Source of the DNA: Chlamydiota bacterium
GTDB lineage: Bacteria; Auribacterota; JACPWU01
Assembly: GCA_016196885.1 (NCBI GenBank)
Contig: JACPWU010000051.1
Location: 1 to 10,400, forward strand
Direction of reading: 5' to 3'
DNA length: 10,400 nucleotides
The position numbers and the translations under genes are program-made. This document shows positions 1 to 9,716 of this stretch, piece by piece (position 1 is the stretch's first letter; each line of letters begins with the position of its first letter). The notes below the pieces were generated by a model. That model was not told where the DNA came from. It made no database searches and was given only the letters and a program-made list of their open reading frames with translations.

Positions 1-847
1 TCATGGCTTTTTCAGCAACCAAGGCAATAATCTCTGCAGAAGCTCCAAAAGATTTCCAGCTCGTATCTGCAACAATTAATCGTCCTGTTTTCCGCACTGA
101 ATGAAGAATAAGGGTCTCATCCAAAGGATAAAGCGTCCGTACGTCTACCACCTCAAGCTGAATCCCCTCCTCAGCCAAAACCTCCGCAGCCCTTAACGCC
201 TCCAAAACCATGTAAGAAATCGCTACAACGGTCACATCTTTTCCCTCGCGAGCCACTTTGGCTTTTCCAAGGGGAACACGATACATCTCTTCAGGAACAG
301 GGCCGCTGATATTGTGTAGCCACCGATGCTCAATAAAAATGACAGGATTATTGTCCTCAATGCTTGAAATCAAAAGGCCCTTTGCATCATAAGGAGTGAC
401 CGGCATGACCACTTTAAGGCCCGGAATATGAGCAAACCAGGATTGTAAACTCTGTGAATGCTGAGGCCCTTGCCCCCAACCTCGCCCAACGATGAGACGC
501 ACAACAAGAGGAACAGAAGCCCGTCCCCCAAACATGTAATGCCATTTAGCAGCTTGATTCACCATTTGCTCCATGGCAAGGATTGCAAAATCAATCCGCT
601 GATGCGTCAAAATGGGCCTCATGCCCACAAGCGCTGAACCAAGGGCAACTCCCGTTATGCCATTTTCAGCCGTGGGCATGTCCATGATACGATCACTTCC
701 GTATTTCTCTTGTAAGCCTAAAGTCGTTCCAAAAATCCCTTTAGGATCTGGAACTCCTAAGCCCATGATATAAACATGAGGATCTTTGGCTAAGCAAAGA
801 TCAAAAGCTTCATGAATTGCCTCAAAAAATTTTAATTCTCGTGGCAT
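1..847 (-). CDS. TPP-dependent 2-oxoacid dehydrogenase E1 beta-subunit-like protein (transketolase-like pyrimidine-binding and C-terminal domains); 3' end lies beyond the window
   Basis: I translated the minus strand from the ATG at 845-847. It is absent from the ORF track because it runs off the edge. Product: MPRELKFFEAIHEAFDLCLAKDPHVYIMGLGVPDPKGIFGTTLGLQEKYGSDRIMDMPTAENGITGVALGSALVGMRPILTHQRIDFAILAMEQMVNQAAKW...VVDVRTLYPLDETLILHSVRKTGRLIV... The frame stays open to position 1. An AAGGA Shine-Dalgarno lies 8 nt upstream, and the start is 12 nt after the alpha-subunit stop. Confidence 0.85.
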   Translation of the reverse strand, partial: MPRELKFFEAIHEAFDLCLAKDPHVYIMGLGVPDPKGIFGTTLGLQEKYGSDRIMDMPTAENGITGVALGSALVGMRPILTHQRIDFAILAMEQMVNQAAKWHYMFGGRASVPLVVRLIVGRGWGQGPQHSQSLQSWFAHIPGLKVVMPVTPYDAKGLLISSIEDNNPVIFIEHRWLHNISGPVPEEMYRVPLGKAKVAREGKDVTVVAISYMVLEALRAAEVLAEEGIQLEVVDVRTLYPLDETLILHSVRKTGRLIVADTSWKSFGASAEIIALVAEKAM

Positions 848-859
848 TTCTAAAATCCT

Positions 860-1828
860 TTACTGCGCATACACATGCTCCATCAATTCTGACGCTTCAG
901 GAAATGGACTTTTTTTTGCAAAAGCCACTGTCTCCTCGATTTCCTCATCCAACTCTCGAGCAATTTTTTGAAGTTCGACTTCATCCACCCATTTTTGAAG
1001 AAGCAATTCGCTTTGAAGACGAGAAAGTGGACAAATTTTTTTCCATTGCTCAAATTCTTCTTCCGACCGGTATCCCAAATCATTGTCGTAGTTAGGCCCA
1101 CAGTGTTCCCGCCAACGATAGGTTTTAAATTCTAAAAAAGTGGGACCCTCTCCTCTTCTCGCACGTTCAGCAGCCTCTCCCCCTAATCGATAAACTTCTT
1201 TCACATCATTTCCGTCCCCTTGAAAGCTCTCTAATCCATAACCTCTTGCCTGTTCTACTACCTCTCGTCCTACGGGCTGACGAACTGAAAGAGGAGAATA
1301 AACAGAATAGAAATTGTTCTCACAAACAAAAATCACAGGTAATTTTTTTAGAACAGCAAAGTTTACACTTTCTTGAAAAGCACCCTCTTCAGTCGCTCCC
1401 TCTCCAAAGAAAACAACTGAAATTCTCTTTTCACCCTTCATCACCGCCCCCAACGCAGCCCCTACACCCATCGGAATGGTACTGGCCACAATTGGAGTTG
1501 CCCCTAAAAATCCTACTGACAAATCCACCAAATGCATGGATCCGCCTTTCCCCCGAGAACAACCCGTCACCTTACCATAGAGCTCAGCCATCATGGCGCT
1601 TAAATCCCCACCTTTCCCTAAATAATGTCCATGCGAACGATGGCCACTCATTACGTAGTCTTCAGATTTTAAATGCGCACAAATGCCCACTGACACCGCC
1701 TCTTGACCAATACACAAATGAACGGGACACCTGATTTGCTGCTCCGGATAAAGCTCTGCAATTCGTTCCTCGACTTTGCGAATGCGAAGCATTTGGTAGT
1801 ATAGCTTTTTTAGAATTTGGACTTCCAT
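860..1828 (-). CDS. TPP-dependent dehydrogenase E1 alpha-subunit-like protein
   Basis: 322-aa ORF with an ATG start. It carries a thiamine-diphosphate binding motif of the GDG-x26-NN type, here as FFGEGATEEGAFQESVNFAVLKKLPVIFVCENN. Overall it resembles PDH, BCKDH and acetoin dehydrogenase E1 alpha (CPVHLCIGQEAV, SGHRSHGHYLGKGG, GKGGSMH). The cognate beta subunit follows immediately. Confidence 0.9.
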   Translation of the reverse strand: MEVQILKKLYYQMLRIRKVEERIAELYPEQQIRCPVHLCIGQEAVSVGICAHLKSEDYVMSGHRSHGHYLGKGGDLSAMMAELYGKVTGCSRGKGGSMHLVDLSVGFLGATPIVASTIPMGVGAALGAVMKGEKRISVVFFGEGATEEGAFQESVNFAVLKKLPVIFVCENNFYSVYSPLSVRQPVGREVVEQARGYGLESFQGDGNDVKEVYRLGGEAAERARRGEGPTFLEFKTYRWREHCGPNYDNDLGYRSEEEFEQWKKICPLSRLQSELLLQKWVDEVELQKIARELDEEIEETVAFAKKSPFPEASELMEHVYAQ

Positions 1829-1889: not shown

Positions 1890-2879
1890 TCACCTCAACT
1901 GCATTTTTTGCATGGTCTTAATATTATAGTAGCGTGGGTCCGTCATAGAATGAGGAATTTTGTTTGCTTGAAAGGCCTCAACCAAATCTCTCACCGCATC
2001 TTCAATCGTATGCTTTGGAACAAATGCCAATTCTCTTTTGATTTTCTCTGATGAAACATGGTAAGAGCGATTATCATCTGTAGGCGTTGTAACCACTTTC
2101 ACATCTTGGCCTACAATTTTCTTTACCATTTGAGCAATGTCCATCACCTTGCGGTTGTCATAACCTGCATTAAAAATCTTCCCATCTATTTTTTCATCCG
2201 GCCATTCTAAAGACTTCACATAAAGATCCGTCATATCTTCAATATGAATATTGGGGCGAAGTTGATCCCCCCCAAAAACTTTAATCACCCGATTCGTAAA
2301 GGCATGATTGGTTAAAATATTCACCGTTAAATCCAGTCGTAAACGAGGAGAATAGCCACAAACCGTCGCAGGTCTTAAAATCAAGGTGACAAAACCCTTT
2401 GTCCTCTCTTTGAGCAACACCTCTTCGCATAAAGCTTTATACTTTGAATAATCCGTAAGAGGCATGAGAGGCAAATCCTCCGTTACATCCCCTTCTTTAA
2501 TTCCATAAACGCTGGAAGAAGAAGCATAAACAAATCGCTTCACGCCACTTTCTTTAGCAATTTTGACAAGATGAACAAAGGCGTCATAATTGATGGATTT
2601 TCCCAAAGCGGGATCCAATTCAAAACTGGGGTCGTTGGAGATACAAGCCAAATGAATCAGGGCATCACTTCCTGGAACCGTACGCTTCAAAAGAGTTTGA
2701 TCTCTGATATCTCCTTTAATGATTTCAAGATTGGGATGTTCTACAACAGAATCAAAAACATGATCTCCATAAATAAAAAGATCTATCACTTTGACACGAT
2801 ACCCCCTGCCTAAAAGCTTAGGGACAAGAACGGAGCCCACATATCCGGCACCGCCTGTGATATAAATAGTTTGGATCAT
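1890..2879 (-). CDS. NAD-dependent nucleotide-sugar epimerase/dehydratase (extended SDR family)
   Basis: 329-aa ORF with an N-terminal Rossmann motif ITGGAGYVGS, a catalytic YxxxK (YSKYK) preceded by ASSSSVYG, and typical extended-SDR length. Confidence 0.9.
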   Translation of the reverse strand: MIQTIYITGGAGYVGSVLVPKLLGRGYRVKVIDLFIYGDHVFDSVVEHPNLEIIKGDIRDQTLLKRTVPGSDALIHLACISNDPSFELDPALGKSINYDAFVHLVKIAKESGVKRFVYASSSSVYGIKEGDVTEDLPLMPLTDYSKYKALCEEVLLKERTKGFVTLILRPATVCGYSPRLRLDLTVNILTNHAFTNRVIKVFGGDQLRPNIHIEDMTDLYVKSLEWPDEKIDGKIFNAGYDNRKVMDIAQMVKKIVGQDVKVVTTPTDDNRSYHVSSEKIKRELAFVPKHTIEDAVRDLVEAFQANKIPHSMTDPRYYNIKTMQKMQLR

Positions 2880-2880
2880 G

Positions 2881-3261
2881 CTATTTGACTAACGCGTGAG
2901 GGAAGTTCGGACTTTCCGGGTTAACCACAAGCTTGCGATGAGCGGGGGATATAATTAAATCCATATCATCCATGGGCACGGCTCCTAGCAATACTTCATC
3001 TCCCAGGACAAGTGCTCCAACGAAACAATGACGGTTCTCAAATATCATCTCTACAGGTCCAACATACGAAACCAGATGCCGTTTTCCATCAGCAGCCGTC
3101 ACTTCCCTTTTGTTATTTTCCTCGAGCCTTAACTGCAACGCAACATGTTCCGGAATACAAAGTGTCAAAGCGCCTGTATTCACCATGGCTTTTGCCAACA
3201 CCATTTTTAACTTTGGCAAGCGAGGGTTTTTAAGCTGAATTTCTGCATGGATATAACCCAT
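2881..3261 (-). CDS. Small retropepsin-like (clan AA aspartic protease family) protein with Asn at the catalytic Asp position
   Basis: 126-aa ORF with a GGGAG Shine-Dalgarno 6 nt before the ATG. The family-typical layout is present: MGYIHAEIQL..., an active-site loop MVNTGALTLCIP where D(T/S)GA is expected, and C-terminal LLGAVPMDDMDLIISPAHRKLVVNPE. Its stop lies 1 nt from the start of the downstream SDR. Confidence 0.75.
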   Translation of the reverse strand: MGYIHAEIQLKNPRLPKLKMVLAKAMVNTGALTLCIPEHVALQLRLEENNKREVTAADGKRHLVSYVGPVEMIFENRHCFVGALVLGDEVLLGAVPMDDMDLIISPAHRKLVVNPESPNFPHALVK

Positions 3262-3314: not shown

Positions 3315-3911
3315 CTAGACATTCGAATTTTCCAATTCCGGATTTGCAGAATACTCCGCCTTACCAATGATTAAATCGACCAAAGCCAACAACCATAATT
3401 GATGAAGGGTCTCCACCCTATTATAAGCGCGGCTGTCTACCCATAAATTAATATCTCCCAATTTCCGGAGGGGATTATCCGGAGCAAACCCTGAAAATGT
3501 GACAACACTTGAGAATTTTTTCACTCGAGCTGCCTGACAAGCCAACAAAATATTTTTTGAACAACCGCTGGAAGAGATGGCGATCAATAAATCCCCTTCA
3601 TTCCCGTAAAATTCAACAGCCTTCTCCATCCATCTTTCATATCCGTAGTCATTTGCAAAGCAGGTAATGAGACTCGACTCATTGAAATTGATAGAGCGCA
3701 CCCCTGCATTTTTTGTAAGATCTACACTGAAATGACTCGCAATCGCGGCACTGCCTCCATTTCCCACCACAATGGTTTTCCCATGGCGAGCCCCTGTTTG
3801 GACAATACGATCTTTCACGAGAGAGAGACGCGAGATGAGTTCATCTGTCGGAGTTGCCAAACGATTAAACGTTTCTAAATAATCTTTTAAAAATTTCGAG
3901 TCGTTTTGCAT
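3315..3911 (-). CDS. gmhA: SIS-domain sedoheptulose-7-phosphate isomerase (GmhA-like phosphoheptose isomerase)
   Basis: 198-aa ORF of typical GmhA length. Motifs VVGNGGSAAIASHFSVDL and AISSSGCSKN are present. It lies 8 nt downstream of the heptose kinase/nucleotidyltransferase-like fusion. Confidence 0.8.
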   Translation of the reverse strand: MQNDSKFLKDYLETFNRLATPTDELISRLSLVKDRIVQTGARHGKTIVVGNGGSAAIASHFSVDLTKNAGVRSINFNESSLITCFANDYGYERWMEKAVEFYGNEGDLLIAISSSGCSKNILLACQAARVKKFSSVVTFSGFAPDNPLRKLGDINLWVDSRAYNRVETLHQLWLLALVDLIIGKAEYSANPELENSNV

Positions 3912-3919
3912 TTGAGCTT

Positions 3920-5503
3920 CTATTTTAAAAGCGTATCTATACTTTTTAATAATCCAATTTTAGAAATGGCTTGTCCCGTTCCCATCACACCCACTTTTTC
4001 AGCCGCCGCAAGATTACCCAGAAGCAAGGAAAGATCCGTTGGAAGGCCTGCTCCAAACGCGGCAGATGTAATCGCAAGTAGCGTATCTCCAGCCCCAATT
4101 CGGTCCACCACTTTATTTGCGAAGGGGGGACAACTTAAAAAGCCCTCTTCCTCCCGATAGGCCAAGGCCCCCTTTACCCCTCTGGTCATGACAACCGTTT
4201 CACATCCCATGCGACGGTAGAGTTCTTGAATCAATATTTTTTCATCCTTCGTCCGCGTTCGGTATTCATGACGCAATTCCCCCTCGTGAATACAAACATA
4301 ATCTGCTCGGGGATATTTTGAAATGGTGTGATAACCAATGTTAGAAGCATTCACTTGCGTATTGACCGCCAAAAATTTTTTCTGTCTCATCAAAAGTTCT
4401 ACGATTTTATCTGAAATCAAGCCATGTCCATAATCTGCTATCAGAACAATATCATGGTCTGGCAATTGCTTTTCTAATTTTGAGATAAACAAGTCCTCTT
4501 CAGCCTTTGTGATGATTTCATCATTGATTTCATAAACTCCGAAAAGTTTAGACTTAGTATAAGCATCCACATAACGTCTTTTCACAAGAGTTGGGGAATT
4601 GGATTTTGTGATGCAATCGAGATGAACATTCGGCTTCAAATGATTGAGAACAAAATCGTTTCGATCCTGACCATGCCCCACGAAACTCGCAATAGTGATT
4701 TTCTGGCAGAAATCCGATAAGTGATTTGCAATCGCCAACACCCCTCCTGCATAAGTCTCTGTTTGAAGCTTTTGCATCACAAGCATCGGCTCTTTCGCAG
4801 ATTTTCCAATGGCATTACAAAAAACATATTCATCGATAATGGCCTCACCAATTAAAAGAACTCTAAGACTGGATAATCGATCCAAATATTCTCTAATGGC
4901 ATGTGCAGAATATTTTCCTTTGATCCGGTCGAGATACTCCATTTGCTCTTTTGTATAAATTGGAAAATTCTGATTTAGGAGAGCCGAAGAACTGAACGTA
5001 ATGTCATTCGTATATCGAATTTCTCCATCCACAGAGCGTACCGATTCTTCTTCTTCTTTAATCTTTCCCGTTAAATCATTGCGATGATCACGATAGTCGG
5101 GTCCCTTCACATAAATATGAGGCTTTAAACACCGAATCGTTTCCTCTGCTGTCGGCCATTCATTAATGACCACATAATCCACAATATCCAAACTGGCAAT
5201 CATTTCCGCTCGATGACTTTCAGTAAAAACGGGGCGCATCGGCCCCTTATTCACAAATCGATCAGGGGTCAGTGTGACAATCAAAACATCTCCCATCATT
5301 TTGGCTTCTTGAAAATATCGCAAATGCCCAACATGCAATAAATCGAAAACTCCATGGCAGTGAACGATTTTTTTATTTCGGGAACGTAAAATTTCTAACT
5401 CTTGAGCTAAGGCTTCAAGGGATCTTATTTTTCCATGAACTTTCATTGCGATCGGTTCTTCGAATTGATCCGTCTTCATTTTACTAAGGAGGCTATATTC
5501 CAC
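3920..5503 (-). CDS. Bifunctional cytidylyltransferase-family nucleotidyltransferase (N-terminal) / PfkB-family sugar kinase (C-terminal); HldE/RfaE-like with inverted domain order
   Basis: 527-aa ORF. The N-terminal ~190 aa carry the HxGH nucleotidyltransferase motif (IVHCHGVFDLLHVGHLRYF). The C-terminal ~320 aa are PfkB-like (LLIGEAIIDEY, GGVLAIANHL, DRIGAGDT). The start is uncertain: GTG at 5503, with in-frame ATGs at 5479 and 5446. Confidence 0.85.
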   Translation of the reverse strand: MEYSLLSKMKTDQFEEPIAMKVHGKIRSLEALAQELEILRSRNKKIVHCHGVFDLLHVGHLRYFQEAKMMGDVLIVTLTPDRFVNKGPMRPVFTESHRAEMIASLDIVDYVVINEWPTAEETIRCLKPHIYVKGPDYRDHRNDLTGKIKEEEESVRSVDGEIRYTNDITFSSSALLNQNFPIYTKEQMEYLDRIKGKYSAHAIREYLDRLSSLRVLLIGEAIIDEYVFCNAIGKSAKEPMLVMQKLQTETYAGGVLAIANHLSDFCQKITIASFVGHGQDRNDFVLNHLKPNVHLDCITKSNSPTLVKRRYVDAYTKSKLFGVYEINDEIITKAEEDLFISKLEKQLPDHDIVLIADYGHGLISDKIVELLMRQKKFLAVNTQVNASNIGYHTISKYPRADYVCIHEGELRHEYRTRTKDEKILIQELYRRMGCETVVMTRGVKGALAYREEEGFLSCPPFANKVVDRIGAGDTLLAITSAAFGAGLPTDLSLLLGNLAAAEKVGVMGTGQAISKIGLLKSIDTLLK

Positions 5504-5633: not shown

Positions 5634-6635
5634 TTATCGGCCCAAATATTGAAACCAATCTTTGGTCGCAACCTCAATAGAATCTCTATCCCAAAGTGGG
5701 GCGTCCCGCCATGCGTCAATGTGATCCAGCATGATGCGAACCCCTTTTTGAAAGGAAACTTTAGGTTGCCAGTGTAGAACCCGCTTTATTTTAGCAATAT
5801 CCGCAAAAGTGCAATCAGGTTCTCCAGGCCGTTTGGGAATATGAACCACATCCCCTTGCAATAACTCTACCAACTCGTTCACACGATAAGTGTTTCCAGA
5901 ACCCACATTAAAAACTTCACCCGACACATTTGATTCTGCCGTCCGAAGAAGCGCATCCGCCACATCCGTCACAAAAGTAAAATCTCGGGTTTGATTGCCA
6001 TCCCCTACCACCGTGAAAGGCTTCCCCGCTAACTTCTGGGCCAGAAAAACACCAAAAACGGCTCCATAAGTTCCTGTTGTTCGAGAGCGAGGACCATACA
6101 CATTGAAAAATCGAAGAGAAACGGCAGGCATCTTGTAAGTCTTTTCCCAATGAAGCACATATTGCTCACCCAAATATTTAGTCAATGCATACGGATACAT
6201 GGGGCGAATAGGCGCTGTTTCGGGAGTCGGATATTGATCTGGAATTCCATAGCACGAGGATGAGGCTGCATAAATGAAACGTTTGACCCCTGCAAGACGT
6301 GACGCTTCTAAAACACAAGCCGTCCCATCCACATTCGAACGATGATAGACCAAAGGTTGCTGAATAGAAGGAACAATATCGGCCAATGCCGCCAAATGAA
6401 AAACCCAGTCTATTTTTTCAAAAAATGGTTTGATCTCTTCAATATGGGACACATCTATTTCATGACAAGAAAATCTTGGGTTCTCACTGGCTTTTTCTAA
6501 ATTTGATATTCTACCCGAGGATAAATTATCTAATACCGTGACCCTGTGTCCTTCTGTCAGCAGTCGGTCCACTAAATGACTGCCGATAAAACCTGTCCCG
6601 CCGGTCACAAGACAACGCATCGAATTATTTTGCAT
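5634..6635 (-). CDS. NAD-dependent nucleotide-sugar epimerase/dehydratase (extended SDR family)
   Basis: 333-aa ORF with LVTGGTGFIGSHLV, catalytic YALTK (YxxxK), RFFNVYGPR and GDGNQTRDFTFVTDVA motifs. Its start overlaps the wzt stop by 11 nt. An alternative ATG at 6620 would leave a 4-nt gap instead. Confidence 0.9.
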   Translation of the reverse strand: MQNNSMRCLVTGGTGFIGSHLVDRLLTEGHRVTVLDNLSSGRISNLEKASENPRFSCHEIDVSHIEEIKPFFEKIDWVFHLAALADIVPSIQQPLVYHRSNVDGTACVLEASRLAGVKRFIYAASSSCYGIPDQYPTPETAPIRPMYPYALTKYLGEQYVLHWEKTYKMPAVSLRFFNVYGPRSRTTGTYGAVFGVFLAQKLAGKPFTVVGDGNQTRDFTFVTDVADALLRTAESNVSGEVFNVGSGNTYRVNELVELLQGDVVHIPKRPGEPDCTFADIAKIKRVLHWQPKVSFQKGVRIMLDHIDAWRDAPLWDRDSIEVATKDWFQYLGR

Positions 6636-8070: not shown

Positions 8071-9090
8071 TCATCTAATATCGATCAGAAGTCTTTGCAC
8101 ATCTTCAGGAGTAGGCAGTTCACCCTGCAATTTACGTGGAAGTTTTTCTGTCATGGTATATTGCGCAATCCCAATCGGTTTTCTACTCTGACGTAAAGCG
8201 TATTCAACAATGGTACGCTTTTTTTCCTTACACATAATAATACCAATCGATGGATTCTCTCCCTTAACCTTTACTTTGCTATCCAGAGCTGAGAGATAAA
8301 ATTGTATTTTACCAACATGTTCCGGCTTGAATTCACCTACCTTTAGCTCCACTGCTACTAAGCATTTAAGTCTGCGATGATAAAGTAAAATATCAATAAA
8401 GAATTCCGTTCCGTCTACCTCTAGGCGATACTGATTACCCATAAATGCAAATGCCCCACCCATTTCAATGAGAAACTTGTTTATTTTCGCAATCAGCGCC
8501 CGTTCGAGTTCCATCTCCCCATGCTCTTCAGTCAACTCTAAAAAATCAAAAGTATATTCATCCTTGACCGCAAGCTTTGCTTGTTTTTTTATTTTTTCAG
8601 GTAGAGTTTTTTCGAAATTGGTCTGGTTGAGCAATGTCTTTTCATAGGTCTGATTTTCGATCTGATGTATTAAAACATTTTTCGTCCAACCAAATTTGCG
8701 GGTCATGCGAATATAAAATTCACGCTCCAAGTCATCGTTGCAGCTTTCTACGATCACTATAATTTTTGTCCAACTTATTTCTTGCACCATTGGTGCAAGT
8801 TTTTCGTTATTCCTAAAATGCAGGTAAAATTTACGCATGCGCCATAGATTATCCGTCGAATATCCTTGCATTCCAGGGAACTCTTTTTGCAAGTCATTCG
8901 CCAATGTTTCAACAACAGCCTTGCCCCATCCTTCTTTCTCCTGCTTTTCAACAATCATGCGTCCAACATCCCAATACAAAACGATTAATTCTCTATTAAC
9001 CGATTTGAGCGCCATGTACTGTGCCGAGCGTATTCGTTCTTTAATTTCACTGAGAAAACTCCTATAACTATTTGTGACTTCTTTTTTCAT
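8071..9090 (-). CDS. DUF1016 / YhcG-family PDDEXK nuclease-fold protein
   Basis: 339-aa ORF. The N-terminal helical region is characteristic (LSEIKERIRSAQYMALKSVNRELIVLYWDVGRMIVEKQEKEGWG...NLWRMRKFY). The C-terminal restriction-endonuclease-like core is FFIDILLYHRRLKCLVAVELK (D...ELK). The start ATG overlaps the ERCC4 stop (ATGA at 9087-9090). Confidence 0.9.
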   Translation of the reverse strand: MKKEVTNSYRSFLSEIKERIRSAQYMALKSVNRELIVLYWDVGRMIVEKQEKEGWGKAVVETLANDLQKEFPGMQGYSTDNLWRMRKFYLHFRNNEKLAPMVQEISWTKIIVIVESCNDDLEREFYIRMTRKFGWTKNVLIHQIENQTYEKTLLNQTNFEKTLPEKIKKQAKLAVKDEYTFDFLELTEEHGEMELERALIAKINKFLIEMGGAFAFMGNQYRLEVDGTEFFIDILLYHRRLKCLVAVELKVGEFKPEHVGKIQFYLSALDSKVKVKGENPSIGIIMCKEKKRTIVEYALRQSRKPIGIAQYTMTEKLPRKLQGELPTPEDVQRLLIDIR

Positions 9091-9716
9091 TTCGAAACTA
9101 ATTCTCGAATCGTTTTAGCCTTGACCTTACCTAATCTTGGAACTTGCATCAGTTCTTCCTCCGAGGCTGTTATGACCTTCTCTACAGTTCCAAAATGAGT
9201 CAACAGTTGATTAGACAATACCGGTCCCACTTGAGGCAGCCCCTGCAAAATATAAAGCTGCTTCTTTAGAATCCGCTTGGGACGTCCGCCGGGTCGGTAA
9301 GATAATTCATGACTCATCATTTCGTTTTGAGACCCTAACAGCCACAAGAGTAAAGCCGTATCCTCCTTGTCATCCGAAAAAAGAACGGGTACCTGCCATG
9401 CCAAAGCAACGCTGATCACTCCTCCTTTTACCGCATGAGGATGAATGTTAACAGAAGTACTATAAAGGTCTTTCCCCTCAATAATGACTGCGGCACAATC
9501 AAAAAATTGCTTCATCCGTGCCATTTGCTTAAAAAGCCTTCCGTCAATAATGGATTGAACAAAATCCAACGTGGTTTTACGCTCAACTACAATCTCCCCA
9601 TTAACAATATAATCCCCCGTTTTTAGTGGCTCTGTTGTGAGAGTAACATCGTATTTCTTCGTTAGAATATCCCCTATGCCAGCATCGTTCTCTCGAAAAT
9701 CCATTTTAATATTCAA
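9087..9716 (-). CDS. ERCC4-domain (XPF/Mus81/Hef-type) structure-specific nuclease with C-terminal tandem helix-hairpin-helix
   Basis: 209 aa from the TTG at 9716. The ERCC4 signature GDx(n)ERKx3D is intact (TGDYIVNGEIVVERKTTLD) and is followed by DGRLFKQ. The C-terminus LQGLPQVGPVLSNQLLTHFGTVEKVITASEEELMQVPRLGKVKAKTI matches the (HhH)2 pattern. The TTG start overlaps the stop of the upstream small ORF (TTGA). The first in-frame ATG is at 9704. Confidence 0.85.
   Translation of the reverse strand: MNIKMDFRENDAGIGDILTKKYDVTLTTEPLKTGDYIVNGEIVVERKTTLDFVQSIIDGRLFKQMARMKQFFDCAAVIIEGKDLYSTSVNIHPHAVKGGVISVALAWQVPVLFSDDKEDTALLLWLLGSQNEMMSHELSYRPGGRPKRILKKQLYILQGLPQVGPVLSNQLLTHFGTVEKVITASEEELMQVPRLGKVKAKTIRELVSK

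Follow-up and report, generated by a model that had tools for sequence, protein, structure and literature searches.

Introduction

Nucleotide-heptoses are building blocks of lipopolysaccharides (LPS), capsules, S-layer glycans and antibiotics, and are ligands of the innate immune sensor ALPK1. In HldE of E. coli, an N-terminal kinase is joined to a C-terminal adenylyltransferase (residues 16-313 and 334-444, respectively, in the E. coli K-12 protein), while other bacteria, such as Burkholderia, use split HldA and HldC enzymes. A further route uses a GHMP kinase and forms a dedicated second heptose line, leading to C4 oxidation of the short-chain dehydrogenase/reductase (SDR) type, epimerisation and reduction for surface polysaccharides. 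According to commentaries on the work of Tang et al. 2024, HENases come as mono-domain, kinase/nucleotidyltransferase and isomerase/kinase/nucleotidyltransferase types (PMC11461863, PMC11573728). Here we analysed a complete contig of 10,400 nt (JACPWU010000051.1, hereafter the window) from a 2.23-Mb genome assembly that is 94% complete, with a focus on one gene that encodes a nucleotidyltransferase-kinase fusion of the reverse domain order. The reverse-order enzyme is real, widespread and uncharacterised, and its chemistry is of the expected kind.

Like HldE, the fusion combines a PfkB kinase with an HxGH nucleotidyltransferase, keeps the catalytic motifs, finds its best NCBIfam match for each half in the HldE domain models and has a GmhA-like gene as its neighbour. 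Unlike HldE, it has the two domains in reversed order, scores below the family cut-offs, falls into separate tree groups and shows switched lid and nucleotide motifs; its gene neighbours, moreover, are those of a tailoring cassette and not LPS-core genes. Among the split enzymes, HldA is the best sequence and fold match for the kinase half and an HldC-type structure is among the best for the transferase half, but the two activities are fused in the window gene and both systems coexist in the genome. The GHMP-kinase pathway is comparable as a second heptose line for surface polysaccharides, but has a GHMP kinase, another nucleotidyltransferase fold and no thiamine enzyme. The HENases likewise join a heptose-type nucleotidyltransferase to other pathway domains, and tri-domain relatives of the fusion exist; however, a nucleotidyltransferase-first order is not mentioned in the commentaries on that work, and the fusion family carries (T)FSSS instead of (F/L)XXGRSTT.

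Results

Domain layout of the fusion

The gene and its two domains, all on the minus strand, are as follows.

3920..5503, minus strand: nucleotidyltransferase-kinase fusion gene, 527 codons from GTG; probable true start at the ATG at 5446, giving ~508 aa
5027..5356, minus strand: cytidylyltransferase-like (HldC-type) domain, N-terminal, residues 50-159; PF01467, 60.5 bits against a cut-off of 21
3965..4864, minus strand: PfkB (HldA-type) kinase domain, C-terminal, residues 214-513; PF00294, 72.1 bits against a cut-off of 25.8

The N-terminal domain contains the motifs HxGH (H57-G59-H60), KGxxRP (K86-P91), KG (K133-G134) and FSSS (170-173), and the kinase domain contains GG (253-254), DYGHG (357-361), E409 and DRIGAGD (467-473). 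As expected for PF01467, which is marked by HxGH and a Rossmann-like fold, H57-V-G59-H60 is invariant and the model is confident. Of the PfkB hallmarks, GG 253-254 and D467...G470-A-G472-D473 are family-invariant and E409 is kept, while the N of NxxE is H406 in the fusion, at a position not conserved in the family. An earlier note on this DNA had deduced a transferase-first, kinase-second protein from the motifs IVHCHGVFDLLHVGHLRYF, GGVLAIANHL and DRIGAGDT; all three were found in the translation, and the Pfam matches (CTP_transf_like and PfkB) follow that order in the open reading frame, opposite to the order in E. coli HldE. The 8 nt that it had counted between the fusion stop codon and the ATG of the GmhA-like SIS gene were also found.

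The predicted structure (AlphaFold) is of high confidence, with a predicted local distance difference test (pLDDT) score of 94 and a predicted template modelling (pTM) score of 0.89, except for residues 1-20, which are disordered and of low confidence. As 14 aligned homologues also begin near residue 20, the true start of the fusion is probably the ATG at that residue (nt 5446), corresponding to a protein of ~508 aa.

Relationship to HldE, HldA and HldC

The best NCBIfam model for the kinase half is rfaE_dom_I (125.7 bits; other kinase models ≤37), and that for the transferase half is rfaE_dom_II (105.9 bits), followed at a distance by glycerol-3-phosphate cytidylyltransferase (42.3 bits). The equivalog cut-offs are 345 bits for rfaE_dom_I (TIGR02198), 181.5 bits for rfaE_dom_II (TIGR02199) and 521 bits for HldE (NF008454), against which the whole fusion scores 170.8 bits and hence falls outside the HldE equivalog. 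The closest sequences in the PDB are 4e84 (B. cenocepacia HldA) for the kinase half and HldC-type entries, with 5x9q among the best, for the transferase half. The transferase half also has weak PDB matches to TagD and ethanolamine-phosphate cytidylyltransferase. A Foldseek search with the predicted model returned HldA at the top (E 9e-24, TM 0.87), ribokinases being next at ~1e-15. The sequence and model comparisons thus support the view that both halves are nearest to heptose enzymes and not to other families. A grouping of the halves with non-heptose enzymes, which the earlier note had named as a case against its proposal, finds no support in the model and fold comparisons, in which heptose models and the HldA fold rank first.

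We then compared each half in a maximum-likelihood tree with 44 inverted-order members, 29-39 stand-alone HldA/HldC sequences drawn from 61 genomes of the same phylum and five other carriers, and three canonical-order HldE proteins (E. coli, Dickeya and Schlesneria). For the transferase half, a long branch (SH-aLRT 99, length 1.04) separates the inverted-order members from every HldC and canonical HldE sequence, the latter being nested within HldC. In the kinase tree, the inverted-order members make up one side of a long branch with a support of 100, with HldA and HldE domain I opposite. Neither half of the fusion therefore groups with HldA or HldC. Glycerol-3-phosphate cytidylyltransferases were sought in the phylum as an outgroup, yielding HldC cross-matches only, and both trees are unrooted because they lack a non-heptose outgroup. 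Since each half falls into its own group, apart from HldA, HldC and canonical HldE, the unrooted trees support a separate origin, in which the inverted-order fusion would have arisen independently of the canonical HldE fusion and in a separate lineage. This agrees with the independent fusion event proposed in the earlier note; of the per-half trees that it had suggested, those against the HldE domains, HldA and HldC could be built, while the glycerol-3-phosphate cytidylyltransferase outgroup was not obtained in the phylum. To judge from its sequence, the fusion is likely to work like HldE, yet it falls outside HldE, HldA and HldC by score, domain order and tree position.

Coexistence with a canonical heptose pathway

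The same genome encodes a full canonical split pathway. On contig C1, HldA (370.8 bits, cut-off 345) stands beside GmhB (179.4 bits, above its cut-off), KdsB, PyrG, KdsA and KdsD, this GmhB gene being the only one in the genome. On contig C7, GmhA adjoins HldC (197.7 bits, cut-off 181.5), and three GT9 heptosyltransferase genes are also present. The fusion shares 25-26% identity with the HldA and ~40% with the HldC of its own genome. Given this complete canonical set and the three GT9 genes, the sequence data indicate that the window fusion is a second, specialised (paralogous) system and not a housekeeping copy.

The 61 sampled genomes of the phylum gave a similar picture. HldC was found in 57, HldA in 58 and the fusion in 14, and all 14 fusion carriers have HldC. 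The scores are bimodal, with HldC at 144-215 bits vs 97-111 for the fusion, and HldA at 230-385 vs 83-137. Outside the phylum, Schlesneria has a canonical-order HldE plus the inverted fusion, and carriers from Nitrospirales, Verrucomicrobiae and Acidobacteriota have HldA and HldC besides the fusion. In the one whole Chloroflexia carrier genome searched, canonical HldA and HldC were not found; it has the fusion only, with a GmhB-type gene 5.5 kb away.

An additional GmhB-kinase-transferase block, in canonical order, was observed in an Acidobacteriota carrier (G065, contig C10, 14105-16680; loci L126, L130, L140 and L148). In this block, the kinase match is divided between two reading frames, possibly because of a frameshift or because the gene is a pseudogene.

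A widespread reverse-order family

A word-indexed search gave >5,000 matches, the best 120 of which are all ~505 aa in length and 51-86% identical to the fusion; for 15 of these best homologues, the alignment is full-length and collinear. The closest named relative (86% identity) comes from a metagenome-assembled genome labelled Chlamydiae bacterium. An exhaustive HMMER search of 1.84 billion cluster representatives (50%-identity clusters) returned 1,425 proteins at E ≤ 1e-30. The domain order of relatives was read from alignments and match coordinates: nearly all of the best 150 of the 1,425 matches are single and collinear, with residues ~25-527 of the fusion aligned to ~3-510 of the relative, i.e. 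the same inverted order. How often this order occurs, a count that the earlier note had called for, was addressed by a scan of one genome per species, in which at least 555 species carry collinear relatives; gene contexts were taken from 80 related loci. The phyla include Elusimicrobiota, Nitrospirota, Chloroflexota, Marinimicrobia, Planctomycetota, Verrucomicrobiota, Omnitrophota, Acidobacteriota and others. Shorter homologues are mostly fragments on short contigs, although a few lie on long contigs and may be genuinely split versions.

Cultured carriers are Azospirillum oryzae KACC 14407 and Solidesulfovibrio carbinolicus DSM 3852, both with the gene on a plasmid, and Schlesneria sp. T3-172. 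RefSeq names the protein of the two plasmid carriers only 'PfkB family carbohydrate kinase', and JGI labels relatives 'rfaE bifunctional protein'. In the literature, with the original study of Tang et al. 2024 represented by its commentaries, we found no publication describing a nucleotidyltransferase-first heptose enzyme; likewise, no characterised HldE orthologue of this order, which the earlier note had allowed for, was found.

Matches were also observed in phages. A 5.5-kb contig of a human-faecal bacteriophage (MT838225.1, 2150-3520) has a distant, 29%-identical collinear match to residues 27-485, and phages may thus carry a nucleotidyltransferase-first relative, too. The cyanophages S-CAM1 and P-TIM68 have transferase and kinase as separate genes.

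Conserved and switched residues

Column-by-column comparison of the inverted-order family with canonical HldA, HldC and HldE showed that the catalytic residues are common to both, namely HxGH, KGxxRP, R98 and KG in the transferase and GG, K308/R310, D357, the E of NxxE, T440 and DxxGAGD in the kinase. The N of NxxE is lost in the inverted-order family. The nucleotide motif GxSTT/STTR5 is replaced by (T)FSSS, in which S171 is invariant and S172 is 91% conserved. According to a commentary, (F/L)XXGRSTT with Arg at position 5 (STTR5) is a hallmark of promiscuous heptose nucleotidyltransferases (PMC11573728). This hallmark is absent from the inverted-order family, in which no GRSTT occurs. Together with the residue switches, the absence of STTR5 means that the nucleotide and the exact sugar are not readable from HldE, and the caution urged from the outset against assuming HldE specificity is justified by these family-invariant replacements.

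The conserved gene cassette

The genes that surround the fusion in the window were compared with those of 80 related loci by clustering all open reading frames, and genes within 5 kb of the fusion were counted as near. The window genes are listed below.

3315..3911, minus strand: GmhA-like SIS sugar-phosphate isomerase, 198 aa, 8 nt downstream of the fusion; gmhA model 85 bits against a cut-off of 209 (divergent)
5634..6635, minus strand: GalE-like extended SDR, directly upstream of the fusion; counterpart in 69 of 80 loci
1890..2879, minus strand: second extended SDR; counterpart in 67 of 80 loci; best solved relative 6vo6, 157 bits (next 109)
860..1828, minus strand: thiamine-diphosphate E1 alpha-like subunit; cassette counterparts in other phyla 59-69% identical
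2..847, minus strand: E1 beta/transketolase-C-like subunit, cut by the contig end
6625..8040, minus strand: Wzt/TagH-like ABC-transporter ATPase (glycan export); counterpart near the fusion in 7 of 80 loci

All best NCBIfam and PDB matches of the SIS protein are GmhA phosphoheptose isomerases, and 40 of the 80 loci have a SIS gene near the fusion. The conserved gene order is GalE-like SDR, fusion, SIS, second SDR, E1 alpha-like subunit (25 loci) or split transketolase N-half (31), and E1 beta/transketolase C-half (39-47). Frequent further genes downstream encode a Zn-dependent dehydrogenase, a weak HAD-like protein, an APH-fold kinase, methyltransferases, DegT aminotransferases and an RmlD-like reductase; of these, the dehydrogenase and the reductase follow E1 beta in the nearest related locus (71% identity). 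The same gene block is visible in the RefSeq annotation of the Azospirillum plasmid.

The two window E1 subunits are 59-78% identical to their cassette counterparts in other phyla, and a second E1 alpha and an E2 component are absent from the genome assembly. In this assembly, the E1 pair therefore does not belong to a pyruvate dehydrogenase complex, and its assignment as a housekeeping pyruvate dehydrogenase was rejected.

Between the SIS gene and the second SDR gene, the window has a gene for a 126-aa clan AA retropepsin-like aspartic protease (2881-3261, minus strand; TIGR03698, 64.5 bits against a cut-off of 57.35). None of the 80 related loci has a counterpart, which suggests that the cassette acquired this gene by a lineage-specific insertion.

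A different setting was observed on plasmid pDCAR1 of S. carbinolicus (NZ_CP026539.1; locus L193, 1-29518), in which the fusion and SIS genes lie among pseB, pseC, pseF and a gene for a NeuB-like synthase (pseudaminic acid). This block also holds a split transketolase, several radical SAM enzymes and an APH-fold kinase, and looks more like a glycosylation island than an O-antigen locus.

Discussion

Proposed pathway

Two tri-domain relatives combine the fusion with further heptose-pathway domains. P0286 (699 aa) consists of a GmhB-like HAD phosphatase (143 bits, full model), a nucleotidyltransferase and a kinase, and P0311 (764 aa) of a nucleotidyltransferase, a kinase and a GmhA-like SIS domain. 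In four loci, Chloroflexi genomes included, GmhB-type genes adjoin the fusion or SIS gene, two of them above the cut-off for heptose 1,7-bisphosphate phosphatase. All four activities, isomerase, kinase, phosphatase and nucleotidyltransferase, are encoded in the genome studied here, with SIS and the fusion in the window and GmhB on C1. The tri-domain fusions, the GmhB neighbours and the kinship data make a four-step heptose logic the best reading. It is thus reasonably likely that the fusion carries out phosphorylation and nucleotidyl transfer in a nucleotide-heptose pathway, the product of which goes to a tailored, possibly C2-branched surface sugar; its substrate, anomer and nucleotide, as well as all of the tailoring chemistry, we infer.

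In this pathway, the GmhA-like SIS protein would isomerise sedoheptulose 7-phosphate to D-glycero-D-manno-heptose 7-phosphate, and the C-terminal kinase of the fusion would phosphorylate O-1. The 7-phosphate would be taken off by a GmhB-type phosphatase, here probably the single GmhB encoded on C1 and in relatives an enzyme encoded beside the fusion or fused to it, and the N-terminal domain would finally join the heptose 1-phosphate to a nucleoside triphosphate. The resulting nucleotide-heptose would not be destined for the LPS core, which is likely to be served by the canonical HldA/GmhB/GmhA/HldC set and GT9 enzymes of the genome. It would enter a tailoring line comprising the GalE-like SDR and the second SDR, the latter with oxidoreductase activity at C4, and the E1 alpha/beta thiamine enzyme may then add a pyruvate-derived two-carbon unit. 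The Wzt-like ATPase suggests that the finished glycan would be exported as a polysaccharide via a Wzt-type ABC transporter.

Pairs resembling the E1 subunits of pyruvate dehydrogenase add a pyruvate-derived two-carbon branch to nucleoside diphosphate (NDP)-4-keto sugars in the paulomycin and avilamycin pathways (PMC4802897). As in the window, Plm8/Plm9 (paulomycin) and AviB1/AviB2 (avilamycin) are E1 alpha/beta pairs set among NDP-sugar tailoring genes with no E2 partner; however, they act on dTDP-deoxyhexoses in actinomycete antibiotics, and the likeness concerns the neighbouring genes alone and is one of gene setting. From this analogy and the 6vo6 match of the second SDR, a reasonable guess for the product is a nucleotide-heptose that is oxidised at C4 and carries an added C2 unit. 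Going further, we tentatively propose, well aware that it may prove wrong, a nucleotide-heptose that is unlike ADP-beta-heptose in nucleotide and/or anomer and is the committed substrate of an undescribed pathway of SDR C4-oxidation and C2-addition by an E1- or transketolase-like thiamine enzyme, giving a branched nine-carbon surface sugar in hundreds of mostly uncultured species.

If the proposed pathway is correct, a second, separately fused heptose-activating family would point to a sugar pathway, and possibly also a nucleotide-heptose, that has so far gone unrecognised, in a reverse-order family that occurs in hundreds of species of many phyla and is tied to SDR and thiamine-dependent tailoring genes. 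Public names are only 'PfkB family carbohydrate kinase' or 'adenylyltransferase/cytidyltransferase family protein', and the pathway is therefore invisible from annotation; as cultured carriers exist, it is testable.

Several points weigh against this pathway. Neither half comes near the equivalog cut-offs of HldE, HldA and HldC (125.7 vs 345 and 105.9 vs 181.5 bits). The substrate-lid motif RISPEAP of HldA has become GKSxKEP in the family (R/I/E to G/K/K), and other canonical-invariant positions are taken by family-invariant residues (DYxKG to DYGHG, VDPK to VNTQ plus an insert, and TNG to CHG); with the lid and these positions replaced, another sugar phosphate is a possible substrate. The window has no phosphatase gene and no glycosyltransferase gene, its contig ends inside the cassette (in E1 beta), and a Wzt gene near the fusion is confined to 7 of the 80 loci. 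The heptose link of the second SDR runs through 6vo6, which we take to be Cj1427, the GDP-heptose C4-dehydrogenase of C. jejuni. Finally, no assayed or characterised reverse-order member was found in the literature.

Alternative explanations

It is conceivable, though in our judgement unlikely, that the fusion activates a sugar phosphate other than D-glycero-D-manno-heptose by the same isomerase-kinase-phosphatase-nucleotidyltransferase logic. One example would be a longer or branched ketose-derived sugar made by the thiamine enzyme before isomerisation, in analogy with the octose line of lincomycin. Such a substrate would be in keeping with the switched HldA/HldE domain I invariants (lid G/K/K, DYGHG, VNTQ with its insert and the lost N of NxxE), with a SIS protein that is a divergent GmhA (85 bits vs 209) and with the thiamine enzyme as a constant companion of the fusion. 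However, the GmhB-type neighbours of the fusion in relatives reach or exceed the equivalog cut-off for heptose-bisphosphate phosphatase, HldA leads the fold matches by a wide margin, and the thiamine genes follow the SDR genes in most loci, which is the order expected for NDP-sugar tailoring.

That the domain order has no functional meaning appears improbable. The catalytic motifs are intact, HldE is the best NCBIfam match and JGI gives relatives the rfaE name, all of which would fit a plain HldE equivalent. Such an equivalent would be hard to reconcile with the complete canonical set beside kds genes in the same genome, the bimodal HldC and HldA scores across the phylum, the travel of the fusion across phyla with its own isomerase and tailoring genes, and the Chloroflexia genome that has the fusion without canonical HldA/HldC.

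A cytidylyltransferase of the glycerol-3-phosphate/alditol-phosphate type at the N-terminus, giving a cytidine diphosphate-linked polyol or sugar phosphate for a teichoic-acid-like polymer from a phosphate ester made by the kinase, with no phosphatase, is very improbable, since the superfamily membership of the domain, its weak TagD and ethanolamine-phosphate cytidylyltransferase matches and a teichoic-acid exporter as the best model for the ABC ATPase are opposed by the HldC-type model score (105.9 vs 42.3 bits), the HldC-type KGxxRP motif and the GmhB-like phosphatases fused or adjacent in relatives.

Other genes of the window

The Wzt-like ATPase has 471 aa, with ~85 residues before and ~185 after the ABC domain; by analogy with O-antigen Wzt proteins, this C-terminal tail could form a domain that binds glycan ends. 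A paralogue that is 37% identical is encoded on contig C42. Further upstream, a YhcG/DUF1016 PDDEXK nuclease gene (8071-9090, minus strand) overlaps by 4 nt with an ERCC4-HhH nuclease gene (9087-9716, minus strand; 209 aa), the product of which aligns with the nuclease portion at the C-terminus of archaeal Hef/XPF (196.8 bits, positions 572-776 of 781). This pair is unusual for a bacterial genome, and neither gene lies beside the fusion in the 80 related loci.

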